Numbered from the stretch's first letter, positions 6,224-18,551 are shown. The stretch: 64,000 bases of DNA from Nibricoccus sp. (GCA_047602425.1 JASGHG010000001.1:384001-448000), one strand, 5' to 3'. Notes: generated by a model not told the origin, from the sequence alone. Translations and numbers: made by a program.

Positions 6224-7522
6224 ATGTCTTTCTCTCCTCTCACCGGTTCCTGCGCTCCAGTCCGCAATCTCGTCTCACGCACTTCAGCCCGTTCGGTCCG
6301 AACGGCATTGCGCCGGAGCGAGCCCTCCCTTGCTCAATCGGCCGCTCCGCTGGTGGCCTTTTGTCATCTCGGGTGGAACGGTGTCTGGCAGAGGCCGCAG
6401 CAATTTCTTTCGCGGTTCTCCCTCACGAGACCCGTGCTGTTCGTCGAAACTTACTGCAGCGACGTAGCCTCCAGTCGTCTGAAGATTCGAAATCCCGCGG
6501 CGTACGCGAACGTCACTGTTTTGGAAATGCACCTGCCGTCCTGTCGCTGGGCGGACGGTACTTTCATCGATCTCGAACGCCGTCGGATGTTGCGCAAATT
6601 TCGAGCGGCGGACGAAGGCCGTTTCGACCATCCCGTGCTTTGGTTTAACGATCCGATGGCCGTGACGGCTTTCGCCGGCCACTGCGACGAAATCGCCATC
6701 GTCTACGACTGCATGGATGAACTTTCTCAATTCAAGGACGCGCCCCCTCAACTCATCGAGCGCGAACGCGAGCTCATCCGGGTTGCAGACGTGGTCTTCT
6801 GCGGCGGTCGAAAAATGCGGGACAAGCGCCTTCCTTTAAACGCCAATACCCACTTCTACGGCACGGGAGTCGATTGCGCGCACTTCGGCGGTACCCGGTC
6901 GCCGACGCTAGCCGTCCATCCAGACATCGCCAAACTTCCCGGGAAAGTGCTCGGCTATTTCGGCGTGATCGACGAGCGCATTGACTACGAATTGCTGGCA
7001 AAACTCGCCGATGCGAATCCTCGTTGGAGCATTGCGATGGTTGGTCCCGCCGCAAAGGTCGATCCGGCCGATTTCCCCCGGCGGAAAAATCTCCACTGGC
7101 TCGGCGGCCGTTCTTATCAGGAACTTCCAGCCATCACCAAAGGTTTTGCCGTTTGCCTGATGCCTTTCGCGATCAATGCCGCGACGGAGTACATCAACCC
7201 CACAAAAGCGTTGGAGTATATGGCGGCGGGACGCCCGATCGTGTCGACCGCACTCGATGAAGTTAAATCGAACTTCAGCTCAGTCGCGCGCGTCGCGAAC
7301 TCGCACACTGAGTTCATCAAGCAATGCGTGGAAGAAAGCGCCAAACCGGATGTATCCCGCATAGTCCGCGGCATCGATCTCGCTTCGCAGAACACTTGGG
7401 AGGCGATCGTGGAAAAAATGGATGCGCACATGCGCAAGGCGATTGCCACGCGGTTGGTGCAAAGAAACGCCGCTCCTCGTTCCCATCGGCTCATCCTCAA
7501 CGGACAATATAATCATGTTTGA
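6224..7522 (+). CDS. GT-B glycosyltransferase (glf-associated type)
   Basis: HLGWNGVWQRPQQ, VYDCMDELS, GYFGVIDER, INPTKALEYMAAGRPIVST motifs. Confidence 0.88.
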   Translation: MSFSPLTGSCAPVRNLVSRTSARSVRTALRRSEPSLAQSAAPLVAFCHLGWNGVWQRPQQFLSRFSLTRPVLFVETYCSDVASSRLKIRNPAAYANVTVLEMHLPSCRWADGTFIDLERRRMLRKFRAADEGRFDHPVLWFNDPMAVTAFAGHCDEIAIVYDCMDELSQFKDAPPQLIERERELIRVADVVFCGGRKMRDKRLPLNANTHFYGTGVDCAHFGGTRSPTLAVHPDIAKLPGKVLGYFGVIDERIDYELLAKLADANPRWSIAMVGPAAKVDPADFPRRKNLHWLGGRSYQELPAITKGFAVCLMPFAINAATEYINPTKALEYMAAGRPIVSTALDEVKSNFSSVARVANSHTEFIKQCVEESAKPDVSRIVRGIDLASQNTWEAIVEKMDAHMRKAIATRLVQRNAAPRSHRLILNGQYNHV

Positions 7523-8636
7523 CTATCTTATCGTCGGCGCCGGCTTCGCCGGCAGCGTGCTGGCCGAAAGGCTGGCGCGAGGTCTCAACAAAAAAGTTCT
7601 TATCGTCGATCGCCGCCCCCACATCGGAGGCAATGCTTATGACTGTTACGACCAGCATGGCATTTTGATCCACAAGTACGGGCCTCACATTTTCCACACC
7701 AATTCGGAAGAAATTTTTGCCTACCTCAGTCGGTTCACGGAATGGCGGCAATATCAGCATCGCGTGCGCGCGTCGGTGGACGGACGCCTTCTGCCGATTC
7801 CAATCAATCTCGATACCATCAACGAAATGTATGGCCTGCATTTGGAGGGCGCGCAGGAAATGAAGGCCTATCTGGCTGCAGTCGCCGAGAGGCGCCAGGA
7901 CATTTTGACCTCAGAAGATGTCGTTGTGAACAGCGTCGGCCGCGAACTCTATGAGAAATTTTTTCGAGGCTATACGCGCAAGCAATGGGGTTTGGATCCC
8001 TGCGAGCTCGACGCTCAAGTCACCGCACGGGTCCCTGTACGCCTCAATCGCGACGATCGCTATTTCCTCGATAAGTTTCAGGCGATGCCGGCGCGCGGTT
8101 TTACGCACATGTTTGGAAACATGCTCGATCATCCGAACATCAAAATCATGCTCAACTGCGACTATTCCGAGGTCGAAAAAGAAGTCGCCTATGAGTCGCT
8201 GATTTTTACCGGGCAGATCGACCAGTATTTTGACTATCGCTTCGGTGAACTCCCTTACCGTTGTCTGGAGTTTAAACACGAGACACACCACAAGCCCGTT
8301 TTCCAATCGGCGCCGGTCGTGAACTATCCCAACGAATATGCGTACACCCGCATCACGGAATTCAAATACCTGACGGGACAGGAACACCCGCTGACCAGTA
8401 TCGTCTATGAATTCCCGAAAGCAGAAGGAGACCCATACTACCCAATCCCGCGTGCTGATAACACGGCGCTGTATAAAAAATATCAGGAGCTCGCCGCCGA
8501 AACGCCCAATGTGTACTTCGTCGGCCGGCTTGCCACCTATAAATATTATAATATGGACCAGGTCGTCGGGCAGGCTCTCGCCACATTCTCGCGGTTGAGC
8601 GGCGTCAGACGCGCCCCGGCGGCGGCTCTGGTTTGA
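7515..8636 (+). CDS. glf: UDP-galactopyranose mutase
   Basis: IVGAGFAG FAD motif, HKYGPHIFHT, GRLATYKYYNMDQ; ATG at 7515 overlaps GT end. Confidence 0.96.
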   Translation: MFDYLIVGAGFAGSVLAERLARGLNKKVLIVDRRPHIGGNAYDCYDQHGILIHKYGPHIFHTNSEEIFAYLSRFTEWRQYQHRVRASVDGRLLPIPINLDTINEMYGLHLEGAQEMKAYLAAVAERRQDILTSEDVVVNSVGRELYEKFFRGYTRKQWGLDPCELDAQVTARVPVRLNRDDRYFLDKFQAMPARGFTHMFGNMLDHPNIKIMLNCDYSEVEKEVAYESLIFTGQIDQYFDYRFGELPYRCLEFKHETHHKPVFQSAPVVNYPNEYAYTRITEFKYLTGQEHPLTSIVYEFPKAEGDPYYPIPRADNTALYKKYQELAAETPNVYFVGRLATYKYYNMDQVVGQALATFSRLSGVRRAPAAALV

Positions 8637-8654
8637 GGTTTTGTTTCATTCACA

Positions 8655-11462
8655 ATGCTCTTATCGCCGATACCGCGACCAGAGTACCCGCGTCCCGACC
8701 GCCAGCGCGGTTTGGTCGAAGGCATCGATTGGCTCAATCTAAATGGACCCTGGCAGTTTCGCTTCGATCCGTTGCGCCGGGGCGTCGAAGAGCAATGGTT
8801 CGCTCCGGGCGGCGAGTGGCGCGAACAAATTATCGTGCCGTTTTGCTGGGAATCGCTGGCGGCGTGGGGCGAAGGCACCGCTGCCGGGAACGAGAATTAT
8901 TATTCCACCCGCGCCTTCATCGATCCGATTTCCGTCACGAGTGAAAACTACCGCAGCGCCCCGCGCCATGAAGTGGGCTGGTATCGCCGCGTGATCGATA
9001 TCCCCGAATCCGGAGCGTGGTCAGGCAAACGCGTTTTTCTCACGATCGGCGCGGCGGATTTCTTTACCGAGGTTTGGTGCAATGGCATTTCCGTCGGAAA
9101 ACACGAAGGCGGTTACGTGCCGATCGAGTTCGATCTCACTGAAGCGCTGGCGAAATCTGGCGACCGGCGCGCGCTTCTCGTCGTGCGCGTCGAAGATCCC
9201 ATGGACAATCACGAGCAACCCGTCGGGAAACAATGGGGCTGGTACACCCCGACGAGTGGTATCTGGCAAACGGTTTTCCTCGAACCGCGCGGGCAGGCCA
9301 GCATCGATTATTTTCGTATCATTCCCGACATCGACACCCGCACGGCGACATTCGAAATCTTCTGCGTCGGCTGCGGTGACACCGCCAAAGTGATTGCTGA
9401 GATTTCACCGCCCGAAGCGCCGCGTTTCGATGAGAGTTTCTCCCTCGTAAATGGCGTGGCCCGCCGCGAAATAAAGATCGATCCTTTGTCCCTGTGGGAT
9501 ACTTCGGCACCCCGCCTCTACCATGTGATTTTTCGCTTGCACGACGACGGACGCGAGCAGGACGTCGTCCGAAGCTATTTCGGAATGCGAAAAATACACA
9601 CGGCCCCCGCTGAGCTGGCCGAAAAATCTCCGGCGCGCCTCTGTCTCAACAATCAACCGATTTACCTGCGCGGGGCGTTGTATCAATCTTATCATCCCGA
9701 CGGGGTCTATACAGCGCGAGATGCAGCGACACTTCGCAATGATATTAGTTTTGCGCGCAATGCCGGCTTCGATTTCTTGCGCGTGCATATCAAACTCGAT
9801 GACCCGCTTGTGCTCTACTATGCGGATACGCTGGGGATGATGCTCATGCAGGACTTCCCCAACTTTGGCGAAGGTGGCGATACGCCACTGGGGCGACAAC
9901 GTTTCGAACAAATGATGCGCCTCGGGTTCAAACGCGATTTTAATCACCCTTCGATCATCGCCTGGTGTTTGTTCAATGAAACCTGGGGCTTCGGCGGGCA
10001 GACGGAGCTAATGCGTTTTATCGCGCCCAAGCTCGGTCCAAAGGAAAGACGCGACGTCGCCAACAAGATGGCCAACACGCCTTCGTTCCGCTGGGTGCAC
10101 GAAATGTGGCAAGTGGCAAAATCGATCGATTCCACCCGGCTGATCGAAGACATGAGCGTCGTGGTCTGGGAGCACCTTGCCGCGTACGGCCATATCGATA
10201 CCGACATAAACTCGTGGCATTTCTATATAGACGACTACGCACGCGCAAAATCTCACATTGAAAACGTCGTGGCCAATACCTACCGCGGGTCGACGTTTAA
10301 TTATATAGAAGGCAGTCTGCAAAAAGATGCACCGCTCATCAACAGCGAGTATGGTGGCGTTGGCGCGCTCGATGGAGATCGCGACATCAGCTGGACCTTC
10401 AAATTCCTAACCAATGAATTGAGGCGTCATGGTCAGCTCTCGGCATATATTTTCACGCAATTGACCGATGTCGAATGGGAATACAATGGCCTGCTCAACT
10501 ACGATCGTACTCCAAAGCAGCTTGGTTACGCGCCCACCCTCATCAATCAAGGTGATGTGTTGCCGATCAACGCCGCGCCGATCTCGCAAATTGCCCCAGG
10601 TGACTCTCTCGATGTCGAAGTGTATTCTTCGCATTTCTCGCGGCGGCCCCGGAGCGGAGTGACCTTGCAGTGGCATTATACGGGAATCGACGATCTCGGA
10701 TTAATGCATCCAGATTTGGGCCGGGGGTGGGAGCAAATTCCCTTTACTCAAAATCGTGTGGAGTTGGCCCAGCGCATCACGATAAAAGCGCCTTCGGAGC
10801 CGATGGTCTGCACGCTTTGGGTGACGGCGATTTGCGACCGAGGCGATACGGTGGCGGCGAATTTCATTCAGCATTTTATCTCCGCCGGAGAGCCCTTGCG
10901 GCGCGAGGAGCGGGACAGCCGTGTTATCCTCCGTCGGCGTCCCGACGAATGGGCGGCGGCCGCGTGGAGCGGCGGGTATTGCACCCGCGAGGAGGCCCGT
11001 GCCGCTCGCTGCGCCTACGGACGAGGCACGGGGTTTTTTGAATGGCATTTCTCGGACGAAGCCATTGGGCAACTCGGCGAAGCCCGCCGCGTGCGCATTT
11101 TGTGCGAAATGTCCTCACGTAGAAACAACACGCCACAAACCGACCCGCACGTGTATGCGTCGGCCATCGATTTGCTCGTCAATGGCCTTCCCGTCCATCG
11201 CGGAATGCTGCCGGATCATCCTCACGATTCGCGCGGCTCGCTCAGCTATTTGCGCGGAGGCCGCGGGGCATACGGCTACATGATCTCTGTCACACTGGAG
11301 GACGAACTGCTTCGCCGCGTCATAAACGCTTCGACAGAGCCAAATCTCCTACGAATGCAATGTGCCGTGCCTCGAAGATCGGAGGCACGCGGCGGACTCA
11401 CGGTCTATGACTACGACTGCGGCCGCTTTCCCATTTGTCCGACGGTCGTGATCGAAACCTGA
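8655..11462 (+). CDS. Glycoside hydrolase family 2, no evident signal peptide
   Basis: PRPEYPRP start, SGIWQTVFLE, RDFNHPSIIAWCLFNETWG acid/base, NSEYGG nucleophile. Confidence 0.88.
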   Translation: MLLSPIPRPEYPRPDRQRGLVEGIDWLNLNGPWQFRFDPLRRGVEEQWFAPGGEWREQIIVPFCWESLAAWGEGTAAGNENYYSTRAFIDPISVTSENYRSAPRHEVGWYRRVIDIPESGAWSGKRVFLTIGAADFFTEVWCNGISVGKHEGGYVPIEFDLTEALAKSGDRRALLVVRVEDPMDNHEQPVGKQWGWYTPTSGIWQTVFLEPRGQASIDYFRIIPDIDTRTATFEIFCVGCGDTAKVIAEISPPEAPRFDESFSLVNGVARREIKIDPLSLWDTSAPRLYHVIFRLHDDGREQDVVRSYFGMRKIHTAPAELAEKSPARLCLNNQPIYLRGALYQSYHPDGVYTARDAATLRNDISFARNAGFDFLRVHIKLDDPLVLYYADTLGMMLMQDFPNFGEGGDTPLGRQRFEQMMRLGFKRDFNHPSIIAWCLFNETWGFGGQTELMRFIAPKLGPKERRDVANKMANTPSFRWVHEMWQVAKSIDSTRLIEDMSVVVWEHLAAYGHIDTDINSWHFYIDDYARAKSHIENVVANTYRGSTFNYIEGSLQKDAPLINSEYGGVGALDGDRDISWTFKFLTNELRRHGQLSAYIFTQLTDVEWEYNGLLNYDRTPKQLGYAPTLINQGDVLPINAAPISQIAPGDSLDVEVYSSHFSRRPRSGVTLQWHYTGIDDLGLMHPDLGRGWEQIPFTQNRVELAQRITIKAPSEPMVCTLWVTAICDRGDTVAANFIQHFISAGEPLRREERDSRVILRRRPDEWAAAAWSGGYCTREEARAARCAYGRGTGFFEWHFSDEAIGQLGEARRVRILCEMSSRRNNTPQTDPHVYASAIDLLVNGLPVHRGMLPDHPHDSRGSLSYLRGGRGAYGYMISVTLEDELLRRVINASTEPNLLRMQCAVPRRSEARGGLTVYDYDCGRFPICPTVVIET

Positions 11463-11487
11463 GTCAGAAAAACCACAACCATGCCTA

Positions 11488-13410
11488 ATGAATTTCTTCC
11501 GCTCCCATGTTTTACCGCCCTTGGAAATCTGGGGTGGAGTCGAATGTTCCTTCGTCCGTCTGCAGAACCATTGCAACGACCAACTGGCCCACACGGGCCA
11601 CGCCGACCGCCTCGACGACCTTGACCGTTTCGCCGCGCTTGGCCTGCGCACGCTACGCTATCCGATCCTGTGGGAACGCCACGCGGGAAATCCCATCGAT
11701 TGGCGCTGGGCGGACGAACGTTTGAATCGGCTGCGCGAACTCGGAATCCGGCCGATTGTTGGCCTGCTGCATCACGGCTGCGGCCCGCTCGCCGATGGTT
11801 TTCTCGATCCCGATTTCATCGGCGGCTTCACGCAATTTGCGCGCGCCGTAGCCGAACGATTTCCATGGGTCGATGCCTATACGCCCATTAACGAACCACT
11901 CACCACCGCCCGATTTAGCGGAATGTACGGGCTTTGGCATCCGCTGCGGTGCGATCTGCCGTCATTCGCGCGGATCTTGCTCAACCAATGCAAAGCGATA
12001 CGGGCCGCGATGGCAGCGATCCGCGAAATCAATCCGACAGCACAGCTCATCCAAACCGAAGATGTTGGAAAAACACACAGCACGCCGCTGTTGGCGTACC
12101 AAGCCGATTTAGAGAATGAGCGTCGCTGGCTCAGCTTCGATTTTCTCTGCGGTCGCCTTCGCGCAGGTTCCCCGATGTTCGAGCATTTGCTCAACGCCGG
12201 GCTGGAATATGAAGAACTGGAGTCTTTCGCCGAAAATCCGTGCCGGCCCGATCTGATAGGGATGAATCACTACGTCACTAGCGAACGTCTCCTCGACGAA
12301 AACCAAGGTCGATACCCACGCGCTTTTCACGGCGGCAACGAGCAACATGCCTATGCGGACGTTCCGGCGGTCCGTGCCCGCGCCGAGGGAGCGGTGGGTC
12401 CGGCGCAGTTGCTTCGCGAAGTCTGGAAACGCTACCAAATCCCCATCGCCATCACGGAAGCCCAACTTGCCTGCACGCGCGAAGAACAACTGCGCTGGCT
12501 CCAAGAGATGTGGGCGGCGGCGGAAGCCGCTCGGGCGGCCGGCATGGAAGTTCGCGCCGTCACCGCGTGGGCACTGCTCGGAGCCTACGATTGGGACTCC
12601 CTCCTCCTCGAAACCAACGGGCATTATGAGAACGGCGCTTTTGACGTGCATGATGGTTCGCCTCGGATCACCGCGGTCGGTCAAGCCATTCGCAGTCTCG
12701 CTGCAAATGGCCGCTTCGAACATCCCGCGGCAACTGGACCTGGCTGGTGGAGACGGCCTGTGCGGTTAATTTTTCCGCGCATTTCCTGTCCACGCACGGG
12801 TCACGGCACGGCCGCGTCCGAGTCCCAGTTCCCCGCGGCACAATGCCCGCTCCTTATCGTTGGCGCAACCGAACGCTTGCAGGAGCTTCTTCGGCGCGCC
12901 TGCCGAATCCGCGGCTTGTCCGCCGTCTTCCTCGCCGATGATGCGATCGATTTCGCCGATCCCACGAGTCGCGACCGCCAATTCCGCCGCTACCACCCGT
13001 GGGCGGTTCTAGTAGTGATACCGAACCACTCCAACGATACCGCGCCGTCTTCTCCCCTAGCCGATGCGGCGTTGGTCGAGCATCTTCGCGTCGTGTCAGA
13101 AAGTGCGCGCATTGGGGTCGGTATTTTTTCGGAGGAACCCGTTCTGGTGGACGACGAGGGATGGAGTTTTCTGACCACGCGAGGAAGCTGGGACGTGCTG
13201 GGGCCGGATCAATCCGGAAGCCTTGAATCGGCCATCAATATTCGCGCCGGCGCCCGCCCCGTCCGTCGCGAAAACCGCCCGCCCGATGCCACGGCGGAAA
13301 TATATTTCCCAACGCGAATCGATGCCGCGCTCAACATTCTGATCGATGACTACGGCAGCGGCGGCTTGGTCTTTGTGCCAATGGGAGAAATGCAACTGCT
13401 ATCGTCTTAG
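11488..13410 (+). CDS. GH1-like glycosidase with degenerate C-terminal RmlD-like segment
   Basis: IWGGVEC, TPINEP and ITE catalytic motifs; C-terminal PLLIVGAT..PWAV remnant Rossmann start. Confidence 0.78.
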   Translation: MNFFRSHVLPPLEIWGGVECSFVRLQNHCNDQLAHTGHADRLDDLDRFAALGLRTLRYPILWERHAGNPIDWRWADERLNRLRELGIRPIVGLLHHGCGPLADGFLDPDFIGGFTQFARAVAERFPWVDAYTPINEPLTTARFSGMYGLWHPLRCDLPSFARILLNQCKAIRAAMAAIREINPTAQLIQTEDVGKTHSTPLLAYQADLENERRWLSFDFLCGRLRAGSPMFEHLLNAGLEYEELESFAENPCRPDLIGMNHYVTSERLLDENQGRYPRAFHGGNEQHAYADVPAVRARAEGAVGPAQLLREVWKRYQIPIAITEAQLACTREEQLRWLQEMWAAAEAARAAGMEVRAVTAWALLGAYDWDSLLLETNGHYENGAFDVHDGSPRITAVGQAIRSLAANGRFEHPAATGPGWWRRPVRLIFPRISCPRTGHGTAASESQFPAAQCPLLIVGATERLQELLRRACRIRGLSAVFLADDAIDFADPTSRDRQFRRYHPWAVLVVIPNHSNDTAPSSPLADAALVEHLRVVSESARIGVGIFSEEPVLVDDEGWSFLTTRGSWDVLGPDQSGSLESAINIRAGARPVRRENRPPDATAEIYFPTRIDAALNILIDDYGSGGLVFVPMGEMQLLSS

Positions 13411-13525: not shown

Positions 13526-13559
13526 TTGCCAAACAATAAACCGTTACGTAACGTTTTAT
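13526..13559 (+). promoter_or_regulatory. Sigma70-type promoter (TTGCCA-17 bp-TAACGT) overlapped by a 24-bp palindromic operator; predicted leaderless start at 13561
   Basis: -35 13526-13531, -10 13549-13554; ATAAA-C-CGTTACGTAACG-T-TTTAT dyad 13536-13559. Confidence 0.7.
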
Positions 13560-13560
13560 C

Positions 13561-14109
13561 ATGCCATACGAAGCTTTAAACCAAGGGCGAATCACCCAGG
13601 CGCTGCGCCGCTTGGGCGAGCTTGCCCGCGATCAAGGCGTGACGCTGGAAGTTTCACTGTACGGCGGTGCCACCTTTACGCTGGTGTACGGTTCACGCGA
13701 CGCGACCAAGGATGTTGATGCACTGGTCCAACCCGCAGCCGTCGCGCAGAAGCTGGCAAAAAAAGTCGCGACGGAACTCGATCTGCCGGAGGACTGGCTG
13801 AACGATAACGTGAAGCAATTTCTCGCCGAGAAAGAGGCCAAGCGCGAATTAGCCGGCGACGAATTCGGTGAAGGACTGCGGATCAGTGTTCCCACCGCGC
13901 AATATCTGCTCGCGATGAAACTCCGCGCCTGCCGCCCTCCTCTGCCGGGCTACGCCGGTGACTACGCCGACATCCGTTTTCTGGTCACAAAGATGAACCT
14001 CAAATCAGTGGACGCCGCCGAAGCCATTCACGACAAATTCTTCCCGCACGACGCGCTCTCGAAAGCGGCCAAAGAGGTCGTCGCATCCGCGCTGAAACCG
14101 TCAAAATGA
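13561..14109 (+). CDS. Pol-beta-superfamily nucleotidyltransferase (DUF6036/AbiEii-like)
   Basis: YGGA..GSRDATKDVD motif, WLND, LLAMKL, D..DI. Confidence 0.8.
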   Translation: MPYEALNQGRITQALRRLGELARDQGVTLEVSLYGGATFTLVYGSRDATKDVDALVQPAAVAQKLAKKVATELDLPEDWLNDNVKQFLAEKEAKRELAGDEFGEGLRISVPTAQYLLAMKLRACRPPLPGYAGDYADIRFLVTKMNLKSVDAAEAIHDKFFPHDALSKAAKEVVASALKPSK

Positions 14110-14631
14110 ACCAACGCCCATCCACGCTCAAAGCCGTCGCCGAACAATCGGAGTCACTTGCTGACTTCGGACGGCACCTGCGTGACTGGCTCCACGAGTT
14201 GCGACTTGTCTCGTCACGTCGCGGTGCCGCCATTGCAGTCGCTGAGGAACCGCCACGCTTGAGCCGCAAGTTCGCCCAAGGAAAAGTCGCCGACGCCTGG
14301 CTCACCGCCTATGCAGAACACCTGGCGGTAAAAGCGGGTATCCAGCCACCCAACTGGGTCTTCGCTTCCTCACGCGTCCTCGCCGAACCAACCTTTAACG
14401 AGCAAAACGAAAGCCCCGCATTGCGAGCGCTCGCGCTTGCTCATGCCCCGCTGGCCTTCAAGCGCCGCAACATATACACGTCGTCAGTGGATCTGCCGCT
14501 TTCGCTGCATGCAGCGTCGCCCCCGCAAATCAGCGGCCGAAAAACGCCAAACCAATGCCGAACGCCAGCGCCGATTCAGGGAAAAGCGCGCTGCAGAGTT
14601 CAAAGCGCTGCGCAAGCTGTTGCGGAAATAA
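14106..14631 (+). CDS. Partner (antitoxin-like) protein; likely true C-terminus lies in the +1 frame ending 14631 (in-frame ORF ends 14648)
   Basis: ATGA overlap with NTase; AYAEHLA..PPNWV..AFKRRNIY domain; basic helical tail in +1 frame after ~14514. Confidence 0.65.
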
Positions 14632-14881: not shown

Positions 14882-14957
<76 letters not shown>

Positions 14958-15009: not shown

Positions 15010-17211
15010 CTATTTTTTAGGAATTGGCGGACGGCTCGCCCCACCCTTTTCCGCATAAGCAATCTTCTCTTCGCGCGGCTCCTTGTTTCCCGAGGAGGAA
15101 CGGGGTTTTTCCGAGCGATTCGGCCGGTTGCTGTAGTACGAATAATTTTGCGTGTAGTAACCGTAATCTTCGCCGGAATTTTGCGGCACGCGGTTAAGGA
15201 CGACACCGACGAGATGCTTGTTGTTGAGACTTTCGATGATCTGCTGCGCGCGCAGGACCATGCTTTGCGGATTGCGGCGGTGTTGGATAAGGAGCGCGGT
15301 GTCGTCGACCACGCTGGCCAGAACGGAGGCATCGCTCACACCGATCACGGGCGGAGCATCGAAAACGATGCGGTCGTAACTGCCGCGCAGTTCCTTCAGG
15401 AGGGCTTTCAGGCGGTCAACGTAGAGAAGACTCAAGGTGAAGCCGCTCGTCGCGCCGGAAGGGATGAAATCGAGGTTCTTGGCCACGCCGACTTGGATAA
15501 CCGTTTTCAGGTCGGCTTTCCCCAAGAGGAGTTCAGTCAGGCCGGGTTCTTTTTTCCAGCCGGAGAGTTGGTGCTGCGTGGGGCGACGAAGGTCGGAATC
15601 GATGAATAGCACGCGTTCGCCGGCCTCGGCCATGGCGCGTACCAGCCGGAGCAGCGTGGTGGATTTGCCCTCGCCGGGCCCGGCCGAAAGCATGACGAGA
15701 CTGCGGCCACGCTCGTTGGTTTTCAACGCGAGGTTGAGGTTTGTGTGGAGTACGCGGAAAGGTTCGGTATCGGCCGGATCTTCCTCGCCGGGTTTGTCTT
15801 TGAACGGATCTTCGCTGAAAGGAATCACCCCGAGCACGGGACGCTGGATGCGGCTTTCAACTTCGGAGACGTTGCGGAAGCTGGTGTCGAAATACTCGAC
15901 TAGCACGGCGGTGCCAACGCCCAGGACCGTGCCGAAGAGGAGCGCGAAGATAAAATTGAGCGTCCAACTGGGTTTTTTGGGATAACGGGCAGGTTCGGCT
16001 TGGTTGAGGATTTCGGTGGTGCGCTTCGGCACTTGGAAATCGATTTCGCGCTGGCGTAGGGTGACTTTGAGCGAAGACAGAATGCGGGTTTCGTCATCGA
16101 GTTTTTGAGCGGCTTCCTCGAAGGGACGCATCCGGTCACGCGCAGAAAGAATCTGGTCAACCTTGGCTTGGGAGAGTTGGTTCTTGAGTTCGGCCACGCG
16201 GGCCTCGGCTTCCTTGTACGCGATTTCGAGACCATTCTCGTAACCGCGAAGCTGGGCGTCGAGTTGCTCGCGGATTTTCGCACGATTATCGACTGCGGCG
16301 ACTAGATCGGGATGCGCTTCGCCGAGGCGGGAACGAAGCTTGGTGACGTTCTGGTCGGCGAGGAGATAGGCCTGGAGGAGGTTTTGGATGTTGGGATCCT
16401 GAATGAGCTCGGAGTTGACGAGGTTGACGCGTTCTTCGGGGGGAATGCTCTTGAAGCGTTCGTAGCGGGTTTTGCGGCCGATGGTGTCGACGCTGAGGGC
16501 GATCAGCGAATTTTGCATCTGGCGAAGGGTTTCGATTTCGATGTCGCTGTAGCGCGCATTGAGATCGACGCCGGAAATGTTGAGGTCCTTGCGGAGTTTT
16601 TCGACGAGATCGCGCTGGGCGGAGACGTTGCGCTCCTGTGACTCAAGTTCCTTGCGAAGCTGGGAGAGGCCCTCGCGCTGCGAGGAAGTGGCGAAATTAA
16701 TGCGGTCGTCGGAGTACACGCGGCCGATTTCATTCGCGATCTCGGCGGCAAGGCGGGGATCCTGGGCGAGCACGGCGATCTCGATCACGGAGGAACCGCG
16801 GGACGACAGGTCGACCCGGAGCATTTTCCGGCGGAGGTAATCGATGGTGATGTCGGTTGGCAACGAACCACTGGCGCCGTACGGTGCGGCGAGTTTTTCG
16901 TTGAGGCCCAGTTTTTGAATGACGGGGTAAAGAATTTTGGCCTCCTGCATGATCTTCATTTGATCCTGCAAGAAGTTTGGATCGTAGTAGCCACTCTGCT
17001 GCGTTTGAAAGAGCTTCACCTCGCCCTCGGGTTTTTCCACGCGGACATTGGTCTTCGATTCATACCAGCGGGGCATGAAGGCGGTGACGGCCAAGGTCGT
17101 CGTCAATACGAGGCCTACAATCAGAAAGATCAGGGCCTTGCGCAGACGCAGCAGTGAAAAGAATTCGGCGAGTGAGGCGCCATCTTTTCCGAGGTGATGG
17201 GTATGAACCAT
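15010..17211 (-). CDS. Wzc/GumC-type polysaccharide co-polymerase with tyrosine kinase domain
   Basis: Two TMs around coiled coil, Walker A GPGEGKST, IDSDLRRP, FDAPP, C-terminal Tyr cluster YGYYTQNYSYY. Confidence 0.92.
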   Translation of the reverse strand: MVHTHHLGKDGASLAEFFSLLRLRKALIFLIVGLVLTTTLAVTAFMPRWYESKTNVRVEKPEGEVKLFQTQQSGYYDPNFLQDQMKIMQEAKILYPVIQKLGLNEKLAAPYGASGSLPTDITIDYLRRKMLRVDLSSRGSSVIEIAVLAQDPRLAAEIANEIGRVYSDDRINFATSSQREGLSQLRKELESQERNVSAQRDLVEKLRKDLNISGVDLNARYSDIEIETLRQMQNSLIALSVDTIGRKTRYERFKSIPPEERVNLVNSELIQDPNIQNLLQAYLLADQNVTKLRSRLGEAHPDLVAAVDNRAKIREQLDAQLRGYENGLEIAYKEAEARVAELKNQLSQAKVDQILSARDRMRPFEEAAQKLDDETRILSSLKVTLRQREIDFQVPKRTTEILNQAEPARYPKKPSWTLNFIFALLFGTVLGVGTAVLVEYFDTSFRNVSEVESRIQRPVLGVIPFSEDPFKDKPGEEDPADTEPFRVLHTNLNLALKTNERGRSLVMLSAGPGEGKSTTLLRLVRAMAEAGERVLFIDSDLRRPTQHQLSGWKKEPGLTELLLGKADLKTVIQVGVAKNLDFIPSGATSGFTLSLLYVDRLKALLKELRGSYDRIVFDAPPVIGVSDASVLASVVDDTALLIQHRRNPQSMVLRAQQIIESLNNKHLVGVVLNRVPQNSGEDYGYYTQNYSYYSNRPNRSEKPRSSSGNKEPREEKIAYAEKGGASRPPIPKK

Positions 17212-17366
17212 GAAGCGTATCTAAGAAATCGTTCTGTGACCGGGCTCAGCAAGCACTTTGTTACAGGTATTTGTGCGAACACCTTGCGTGAAGAAGTTGT
17301 TTTTAGCAACGGGCAAGCCCTCAAAGCGACGCCGGGGCCGCAAATGGGTTACGCGACGCGGCCCGG

Positions 17367-18551
17367 CTAGAAAACGTATTTCGTGCTCAGGCCAGCGCGG
17401 GTGCGTTTGAGCGCGCGGTCCCGATCGTCAGACGAGATGCGATCGTAATCGACCGTGAGCGAGACCGACCAGCGTCGCGTCGGCCGGTAAACAAAAGCAC
17501 CGCCGAGTTGGGTGTTGGTTTCGCTTTGATCGGGACGCACGCCCTGCCGACCGTGCAGACGTGACGGCTCCCAGGTGAGCGAGCCCGTCAGGGCGAATTT
17601 CGGCGTGAGCATCTGCTGCAGATTGAGAAAACAGCGGTTCACACTCATGTCCGTGTACAGTTCGGTGTTTGAAGTTTCCTCGACCGAGTAACCGTATCCA
17701 ACCGAAACATACGAGCCTTGGCCGTAGTCCAGTTTCAAACCGAGTTCAGCATAAGGCAGGGTATCGCTGCGCTCGCTGGCGCGGCGACGTTGTTCGACAC
17801 CAAGCCGCCCACTGACGGAAAAACGGGCATTGAGCGCACGATCGAGACCCAGCAGGAAAAAATCCGAGCGTTTGTTTTTCGTGCGGCCTTCGGTGTCATA
17901 ACGAATATCGAGATGGCGGTACTCCAGCATTGTCTGTAACAAAGGCAGCACTGTCTGGCTCGCCGTGACACCGACAAGCAATTCGGAGCGGTCGAGACTG
18001 TCCGCCAACACGTCGTCGGCAAAAGCGTAGCGCGTGTGGCGTCCTTTAAAAGTGAGCCCCGTGCGTTTGGTCAGGCTCATGGCAAAGCGCGAATCGAACT
18101 GGTTGCGACTAAACGACTGATCGGTGTTCACCACCGTGGCCAAGCCGGGCAGAAGCGATTCGGGATTTTTCGCGATCTGATACGTATCGCTAAAATCCAA
18201 TTCCATTTGCGGAGTGAAGGTATGCGCCAGGCGCGCCATGAATTCATGACTATCGAGCGACTTTTTCCCCGGTCGGTCGGGCATGTAGTCGTACGAAAGC
18301 CGGTAAGCCGCCGAGGCCAGCGTGCGGCCATCAATCGAGGCATTGAACGCAATATTCGGATTCAACTGATAGACGTAGCTGCTGACTTCATTCACCGAAC
18401 CACCAAATATGTTCGAATCGTAGAAAACCCCGGTGGACAAATAAACCGTGAGCGCCTTCCCCTGCTCCACCTCGGGAATCGGCGCGTAAACCGCGCCCAG
18501 GCGCAAGACGGGCAGAAGGCAGAAAGCAAAAATGATTCGCAGGGCACGCAT
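17367..18551 (-). CDS. Outer-membrane beta-barrel protein (EPS export associated)
   Basis: Signal peptide, YDSNI motif, alternating beta pattern, terminal YVF; upstream of wzc-like gene. Confidence 0.75.
   Translation of the reverse strand: MRALRIIFAFCLLPVLRLGAVYAPIPEVEQGKALTVYLSTGVFYDSNIFGGSVNEVSSYVYQLNPNIAFNASIDGRTLASAAYRLSYDYMPDRPGKKSLDSHEFMARLAHTFTPQMELDFSDTYQIAKNPESLLPGLATVVNTDQSFSRNQFDSRFAMSLTKRTGLTFKGRHTRYAFADDVLADSLDRSELLVGVTASQTVLPLLQTMLEYRHLDIRYDTEGRTKNKRSDFFLLGLDRALNARFSVSGRLGVEQRRRASERSDTLPYAELGLKLDYGQGSYVSVGYGYSVEETSNTELYTDMSVNRCFLNLQQMLTPKFALTGSLTWEPSRLHGRQGVRPDQSETNTQLGGAFVYRPTRRWSVSLTVDYDRISSDDRDRALKRTRAGLSTKYVF

Follow-up and report, generated by a model that had tools for sequence, protein, structure and literature searches.

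A predicted leaderless two-gene operon with a palindrome over its promoter

The window analysed here, a 64,000-nt stretch of Nibricoccus sp. DNA, carries a compact two-gene module in which a nucleotidyltransferase (NTase) gene is followed by a partner gene, with a predicted promoter and a dyad directly in front of the first start codon (Table 1). The carbohydrate genes that precede the module (7422-13410), among them a GH2 and a GH1 hydrolase and what we take to be a UDP-galactopyranose mutase, appear to be unrelated to it. Beyond the tRNA-Gly gene on its other side lie a gene for a Wzc-like polysaccharide chain-length kinase and its neighbours (15010-18551, minus strand). A tRNA gene was present in the fetched stretch of only 10 of 156 related loci. 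In locus L048, what seems by eye to be a second small antitoxin-toxin pair (PIN-like) follows the partner gene.

Table 1 Features of the NTase-partner module in the window, with the neighbouring tRNA gene.
Feature	Position	Strand	Basis or remark
Predicted -35 hexamer, TTGCCA	13526..13531	+	Sequence; in 106 of 115 related loci, TTG precedes the -10 by 16-18 nt
Predicted operator, 24-bp dyad ATAAACCGTTACGTAACGTTTTAT	13536..13559	.	11 of 12 pairs match
Dyad core CGTTACGTAACG	13542-13553		Two GTAAC half-sites flanking a central CG; AT arms outside
Predicted -10 hexamer, TAACGT	13549..13554	+	Overlaps the right half-site; 17-nt spacer to TTGCCA
Nucleotidyltransferase, 182 aa, MenT/AbiEii/DUF6036-like group, putative toxin	13561..14109	+	Model, fold matches, motifs
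Partner helical core, about 136 aa, putative antitoxin	14106..14514	+	No family match; DUF6036 fusion relative
Single extra base cutting the tail off the partner	14515 (about)	+	Alignment with same-genus locus L002
Out-of-frame tail: (G)RP arm, basic helix, one hydrophobic heptad	14518..14631	+	+1 frame
Basic helix NAERQRRFR	14554-14580	+	Within the +1-frame tail
tRNA-Gly(GCC), 3' end facing the module; possible insertion site	14882..14957	-	Context

The NTase model (pLDDT 91) has a Pol-beta-type nucleotidyltransferase fold, with the G-G and D-x-D motifs and the later K and D motifs in place. Its fold matches included 5UVD (Z 8.1), MenT1 (Z 7.9; 154 aligned residues, rmsd 4.6), ANT(2'') (Z 7.4), TglT (Z 7.3) and MenT4 (Z 7.2); these Z values are middling, and all ten matches above Z 5 were nucleotidyltransferase folds. 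Among 145 full-length homologues, with 11 short ones excluded, the GG, TxDxD, K and DxxD motifs were kept in 139-145. The window protein itself missed the Pfam cut-offs for AbiEii (15.4 bits, cut-off 22.5) and DUF6036 (13.3 bits, cut-off 23.6), and the best member of its family matched DUF6036 at E 7e-5. A second NTase paralogue in the same genome (L022; G000:C1:1368903-1369424, minus strand), 39% identical and with degenerate GG and DxD motifs, has neither a partner match nor a dyad and is probably catalytically dead.

The first-pass annotation had proposed a TTGCCA-17-TAACGT promoter, a 24-bp dyad covering its -10 and a start on the ATG that directly follows, and each of these was found: the hexamers span 13526-13554, the dyad is conserved among relatives, and the ATG at 13561 stands 6 nt downstream of the -10. 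A consensus promoter scan did not call this promoter, which matches at 8 of 12 positions. Across the 115 related loci that bear the dyad, the spacing of the two hexamers is kept in most, the start codon falls 6-7 nt past the -10 in 91, and an SD-like word occurs in none. The start is predicted to be leaderless, and this architecture appears to be conserved among the relatives.

Within the 5.16-Mb genome, CGTTACGTAACG occurs once and TTACGTAA 20 times, and equally good 24-bp dyads are found in 18 places; by itself, the dyad is only moderately rare within one genome, and the evidence from that single genome is modest. It is more than a chance palindrome because it is conserved in relatives. In the promoter spacer, the left half-site and the two AT arms show a conservation of 0.83-0.99, versus 0.3-0.5 upstream of the -35, and of 575 arm positions in the related dyad loci, 472 are mirror-matched. 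Part of the conservation of the right half-site is explained by its second role as the -10.

The partner gene and its displaced tail

As proposed in the first-pass annotation, the two genes are coupled by an ATGA overlap (14106-14109), and the same overlap is present in 83 of 156 related loci. The partner has no significant Pfam, NCBIfam, PADLOC or PHROGs family, and its core gave no fold match by Foldseek or VIA-align (best VIA Z 4.7), from which fold novelty does not follow; in none of the family or fold searches did it resemble an AbiEi/MenA-type antitoxin. By hhalign, the core is related (probability 97.6%) to that half of a mycobacterial DUF6036 fusion which is not the NTase. A partner profile retrieved 1,555 representatives at E 0.001 or better, and the gene is present in 150 of 401 genomes of the family and 26 of 301 of the phylum, the named relatives being Opitutaceae.

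The partner had been credited with a basic tail read in the +1 frame. That sequence is indeed present in the +1 frame; the assembled partner, which continues to 14648 in an unrelated frame, carries no helix and ends in an unrelated C-terminus, because an extra base at about 14515 shifts the frame. In the window genome, tblastn finds the partner in two pieces. Nearly all of 119 other homologues carry the tail in frame, with the pattern AGRPxKSxxEKRxxNAERQRRFR, and a few are truncated or tail-less; an intact same-genus partner (P0005) was modelled as a helical core with a long C-terminal helix (residues 143-173, pLDDT 90). Set beside these homologues, the window copy is broken, or mis-assembled, just before the helix. 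In this genome the displaced helix predicts a loss of autorepression, with the partner core and the NTase intact.

Alternatively, this strain may still produce the tail: the extra base could be an error of assembly, or +1 slippage could occur at the CCC-C run directly behind it. Apart from this base, neither the dyad nor either gene shows damage, and they are at least 90% identical to relatives where aligned, as an error or a very recent change would leave them. A search of sequencing runs listed 13, each containing under 0.1 of the sequence words, with no RNA run among those listed. Against this, the extra base lies outside any homopolymer, the assembly is 99.97% complete by markers, and the tail has been lost naturally in other lineages too; slippage, moreover, is not a conserved feature, close relatives having a continuous frame. 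We give continued production of the tail somewhat less than an even chance. Programmed frameshifting was considered separately and judged unlikely because the relatives are in frame.

The window genome showed no further copy of the tail, and so nothing that would indicate a wider regulon. Two fragments came from a search for short stand-alone tails, and an Atlas search with the tail returned unnamed clusters alone (0.83-0.85), which we treat as leads only.

A likely toxin-antitoxin pair

The fold of the NTase, the gene order, the overlap, the patchy presence and the existence of fusions together suggest that the pair consists of a likely toxin and a likely antitoxin. With the MenT/AbiEii (DUF1814-like) and DUF6036 systems it shares the NTase fold and catalytic motifs, as well as the kinship of the partner core to one half of the DUF6036 fusion. 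It differs from MenT/AbiEii in that the toxin gene comes first and that autoregulation would be exerted by a basic helix instead of a winged HTH.

The helix could also bind DNA in a pair that is not a toxin-antitoxin or defence system, with the NTase tuning the repressor by modifying either the partner or a small molecule, or with some other role in a mobile element. Such a role would sit well with a partner unlike known antitoxin families or folds, with non-toxin NTases such as ANT(2'') among the top fold neighbours, with weak PADLOC matches, and with the many partners that persist in loci devoid of an NTase match. Yet a small overlapping two-gene operon of patchy presence is typical of toxin-antitoxin loci, MenT1, MenT3 and MenT4 are among the nearest folds, NTase-partner fusions exist, and a DNA-binding tail that can be exchanged for an HTH is again typical of toxin-antitoxin systems. 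We consider a role of this other kind unlikely and retain the toxin-antitoxin reading.

Several variants of the partner core were seen in the course of these searches (L723, L724; proteins P0164, P0260, P0269; L738:1165-2244): a C-terminal HTH in place of the helix, fusion to the NTase in either order, and fusion to a HAD hydrolase.

The tail and the dyad co-occur and change together

Partner matches were found in 235 loci, of which 156 were scored, all of them non-duplicates in which the NTase start was visible (40 lacked an NTase match, 17 lacked the NTase start, 16 were duplicates and 6 had short upstream sequence). Scored with the pattern CGTTAnnTAACG, which was derived from the same 156 loci, the dyad core matched at 8/10 or better in 101 of the 103 loci with N..R (N..FR) tails, and its centre was CG in 96 of these 101. 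These class A tails carry N-x7-R, with a few T, S or D substitutions for N. The dyad was likewise present in all 14 loci with N..Q/H tails, where the centre was GC in 11 and GA, TC and CG in one each. All five loci with RQRAYR tails have the half-sites in reverse order (CRTAACGTTAYG). None of the 14 loci with Asn-less KAxLRQ-type tails (L210 being a misfit) reached 9/10; all 14 retain one CGTAACG (6/7 or better), in most cases 7 nt more distant from the start codon, where it is unlikely to be the -10. Among tail-less loci, with the window and one broken partner set aside, 0 of 18 reached 9/10 and two reached 8/10; with those two included, 2 of 20 reached 9/10, namely the window and the broken partner.

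The first-pass annotation had predicted that tailed partners would share the upstream dyad and that HTH-fused ones would not, and both expectations were borne out, the second in two HTH-tailed loci without a dyad (L723 and L724) from a later phylum search whose loci took no part in defining the tail classes. The same search produced tail-less, NTase-linked loci without the dyad (L725-L727, L729, L733) and RQxAYR tails accompanied by the reversed site, clear in L717 and partial in L714, L715 and L719. Substitutions in the tail track changes in the site.

In a tree of the related loci (quick method, 87 rows), Gln tails make up a single clade inside the Arg group, apart from L138, an R-to-Q member that stands separately and has kept CG, and the other classes form one group each; on this tree, each covariation inside the operon family would essentially be one event. 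A tree built from the partner core only contains six changes of tail state, at least three of which are forced by well-supported branches, with the window and the broken partner included.

We consider it probable that the partner represses its own leaderless operon through the dyad. In outline, a MenT-like NTase (likely toxin) would be co-transcribed with a helical partner (likely antitoxin). Where relatives have the partner intact, its C-terminal basic helix would bind the GTAAC half-sites over the -10 and so repress the operon. By analogy with Pap1 and HapX, this helix would enter the major groove and make contacts via N(0), Q(+4), F(+7) and R(+8), and the GRP arm would follow the minor groove along the AT tract beside it. 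Two partner tails would occupy the dyad and block the -10, helped by at most one heptad of zipper.

Noting that no long leucine zipper follows the helix, the first-pass annotation had assigned dimerisation to the N-terminal domain or to the NTase. A long zipper is indeed absent; the NTase is probably dispensable for recognition, since three partners with no NTase match in their locus (L016, L169, L211) still have the site immediately upstream. In two further partners of this kind the site is more distant, at 105 and 210 nt, and no dyad was seen near nine tailed orphans. Separately, several genomes of the family retain a tail-less partner clade (L015, L201-L209) with neither an NTase match nor a dyad.

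The same helix accompanies site arrays in phages

Viral contigs were searched for DNA coding for NAERQxR[FY]R, with the flanks unconstrained, which gave 87 loci, 75 of them distinct by local protein sequence and representing fewer than 75 independent cases, as several families recur. The motif was masked before 6-mers were counted, and expectations were taken from dinucleotide shuffles. The two top-ranked 6-mers were GTAACG (337 observed versus 20.2 expected) and CGTAAC (250 versus 20.8). Three or more overlapping sites, one CGTAACG counting twice, were present in 61 of the 75 loci compared with 2.6 in the shuffles, and in 0 of 27 chance-match loci, which served as the control after a reversed-motif search had yielded a single locus, too few for the purpose. 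The sites occur in several frames and on both strands, 42 of them outside the helix ORF, which points to a constraint at the DNA level.

Site arrays were found within replication initiators of several PHROG families (in a scan of 19 of the 75 loci) and in a terminase small subunit locus (43 viral proteins scanned), and full CGTTACGTAACG dyads precede small viral genes in L258, L263, L292, L296, L303, L306 and L309. The spacing of the viral sites is varied, with direct repeats at 12 nt and inverted ones at 4, 6, 7 and other distances. Because both spacing and orientation vary, these arrays suggest that one helix reads a single (c)GTAACG unit and that a fixed zipper-type dimer may not be needed. 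Some motif-bearing loci have no sites, notably L278 and L313, both apparently RHH-fused by eye, and 035JT001 gp62.

The tail is not confined to the NTase-partner pair for which the first-pass annotation had described it: the same helix is widespread and mobile and occurs in many phage proteins unrelated to one another. It would be best described as a portable module, found in the replication initiators and small proteins of phages as well as in a terminase small subunit, almost always beside GTAACG arrays, with other helix words going with other sites.

Individual viral genes provide several further observations. In L323 (2-619, minus strand), an Sf6-type terminase small subunit has the helix, together with a GTAACG array, fused to its front. 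A 37-aa gene in L246 (676-789, minus strand; MTNAERQKLFR..) encodes almost nothing except the helix and starts 11 nt past a palindrome, on a contig whose neighbouring genes we presume to be microvirus-like. ORF10 of Ralstonia phage RSS1 (L736:600-1351), annotated as hypothetical, reads GRGRPRK..NAERQAAFR, and the 60 nt leading up to its start contain four GTAAC-type sites. In Pseudomonas phage 42-1, DAERARRYR goes with GTGAC/GTCAC dyads instead.

Helix words pair with different sites

Two predictions preceded the code scans, namely that Gln at +8 relaxes the G of GTAAC and that AERKRxQR pairs with GTCAC, the latter based on initiator sequences. Only 2 of 29 distinct NAERQxRxQ loci were genuine helices (FQ or YQ); both have CTAAC sites, mixed with GTAAC in one of them. 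By our own protein-side rule for what is genuine, 43 of 78 distinct AERKRxQR loci (80 taken from more than 120) and 9 of 78 AERVRxHR loci were genuine-like. GTCACG was seen 108 times versus 28 expected, and GTAACG 5 times versus 10 expected, at the genuine-like AERKRxQR loci; at the genuine-like AERVRxHR loci, GTAACG was seen 32 times versus 3 expected, mostly preceded by T. Of the Asn-less AxERQxAYR loci, 11 of 64 have at least three sites, a mixture of GTCAC, GTAAC and ATAAC with many chance matches.

Many phage replisome organisers and O-like initiators carry the helix just upstream of in-gene origin repeats. Nine Phage_rep_org_N-type initiators, hand-picked among 30 listed of 159 matches, were compared by repeat counts pooled from two counting windows of different extent. 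Four RK-x-KQR initiators have 4-5 GTCAC and at most one GTAAC each, four RQ-xx-YR or RV-A-RHR initiators have 5-7 GTAAC and no GTCAC, and the ninth has neither repeat, so that eight of the nine bear the repeat that goes with their helix word. The four RK initiators keep Asn yet differ in their repeat, and so +4 and +7 matter too.

The sites might be real operators and iterons and still be read by something else, be it a host regulator, the partner core or the winged helix of the initiators, with the basic helix adding non-specific contacts to DNA or partner. In phage initiators, an N-terminal winged-helix-type domain is usually credited with in-gene iteron binding; basic helices are common, and the helix was nearby in only 1 of 11 viral loci picked by palindrome. 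A host regulon site, by contrast, would hardly be a 12-mer with a single occurrence in the genome, and partners that keep the core and lack the tail also lack the site, which speaks against reading by the core. The agreement between repeat and helix word in the initiator family, and the start of the 37-aa, nearly helix-only viral protein directly after a palindrome, further argue for the basic helix as the reader. We judge another reader of the sites to be improbable.

The in-gene repeats of annotated phage replication initiators (L739-L749) were seen to track the helix word. The epsilon15 initiator combines DADRKRNVR with GCGGAC repeats, which suggests that there are further code words.

Relation to bZIP basic regions and to RptR

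In the first-pass annotation, the helix was called bZIP-like. Passages available from the Pap1 literature list Asn86, Ala89, Gln90, Phe93 and Arg94 as contacts to a TTAC half-site, with the signature NxxAQxxFR (PMC7261193), and those available for HapX place its KPGRK arm in an AT-rich minor groove (10.1101/2021.07.15.452465). The likeness to Pap1, Yap and HapX extends to an N-x7-R helix with Q at +4 and F at +7, which NAERQRRFR in the +1 frame of the window displays, to TTAC half-sites with a TTACGTAA core, and to a GR-containing arm before the helix that faces the AT tract; with HapX, hydrophobic residues at +7 and +10 are shared in register. The helix positions that covary with the site (0, +4, +7 and +8) are contact positions of Pap1, and TTAC and TGAC are the half-sites of bZIP proteins.

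The differences are equally plain. Of the full NxxAQxxFR signature, N, Q, F and R are present, and +3 is a near-invariant Arg in place of Ala. A multi-heptad leucine zipper is absent: hydrophobic residues are found solely at +7 (0.87), +10 (0.90) and +13 (0.71), which makes one heptad, and class A tails have a median of 19 residues from R+8 to the C-terminus. The single-site class is without a hydrophobic heptad, and the reversed-site class has another pattern. The arm stands 3 residues nearer the Asn, the phage sites are single in many spacings, and the helix is fused to unrelated prokaryotic domains. Skn-1 of C. elegans may also be likened to the tail: its basic helix has no zipper, is preceded by a GR arm and, as a monomer, reads one half-site with its AT flank; it differs in having a helical support segment and another half-site.

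Pfam bZIP had no match in 10 partners or 43 viral proteins, and a wide fold search barely covered the tail. The only PDB match to the tail was the HapX bZIP (7AW7), which spans the arm, the basic region and the first heptad and, at E 0.099, is not significant. Judged by the absent zipper, the Arg at +3 and the lack of a significant profile match, the helix is not a member of the bZIP family. True homology with bZIP we regard as rather doubtful.

The likeness might instead be a coincidence of composition and the dyad merely promoter sequence, in keeping with the lack of a significant Pfam bZIP or PDB match and with a right half-site that is also the -10. The strong conservation of the left half-site and AT arms, set against the poorly conserved sequence upstream of the -35, is at odds with this, and neither the viral enrichment nor the dependence on the helix word can stem from a -10. 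Coincidence is largely refuted by these three observations, and we consider it highly improbable.

A DNA-reading basic helix is the interpretation we keep. The operon appears to be an undescribed NTase-partner member, present in the 150 family genomes counted above, and its tail one case of a widespread, apparently undescribed prokaryotic DNA-reading helix. Literature searches outside subscription journals and supplements returned no description of the helix, its sites or DUF6036; a tabulation of Pfam bZIP matches in prokaryotic genomes leaves the module unmentioned in the passages available (PMC7017128). Such a helix would add a DNA-binding module of about 25 residues outside Pfam coverage, would allow operators and phage origin repeats to be predicted from protein sequence, and would point to an origin-recognising element in a common class of phage initiators. 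With bZIP signature positions and TTAC/TGAC half-sites in a widespread prokaryotic helix, an origin of the bZIP basic region would become directly testable. More speculatively, bacteria and their phages may share a large, so far unrecognised family of single-helix DNA readers with a transferable code, in which Q+4/F+7 reads TTAC, K+4/Q+7 reads TGAC and R+8 reads the central CG, a family homologous to the bZIP basic region, forming its source pool, and recognising the origin in place of the winged helix in many temperate phages; taken as a whole, we find this extension somewhat unlikely.

A bacterial parallel is RptR of enteropathogenic E. coli (PDB 9R2Z), an autorepressor of a defence operon according to the available passages of its description (PMC12255303). 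There, RptR is a stand-alone four-helix dimer, with modelled contacts at Thr57-Lys61, that binds a short palindrome, TAGCTA (TTTAGCTAA repeats), over the -10 with two splayed helices, an arrangement which its authors liken to bZIP (PMC12255303). The same passages contain neither a portable motif nor a cross-phage code (PMC12255303), and RptR was not among the matches of the partner profile in the PDB sequence set or among the listed fold matches. In the light of these passages, the bZIP-like binding mode has a bacterial precedent in RptR. A short palindrome overlapping the -10 of its own operon, the feature on which the module was compared with the RptR family, is present in the window as well, and the operator of the Gln clade shares the TTAGCTAA core with that of RptR.
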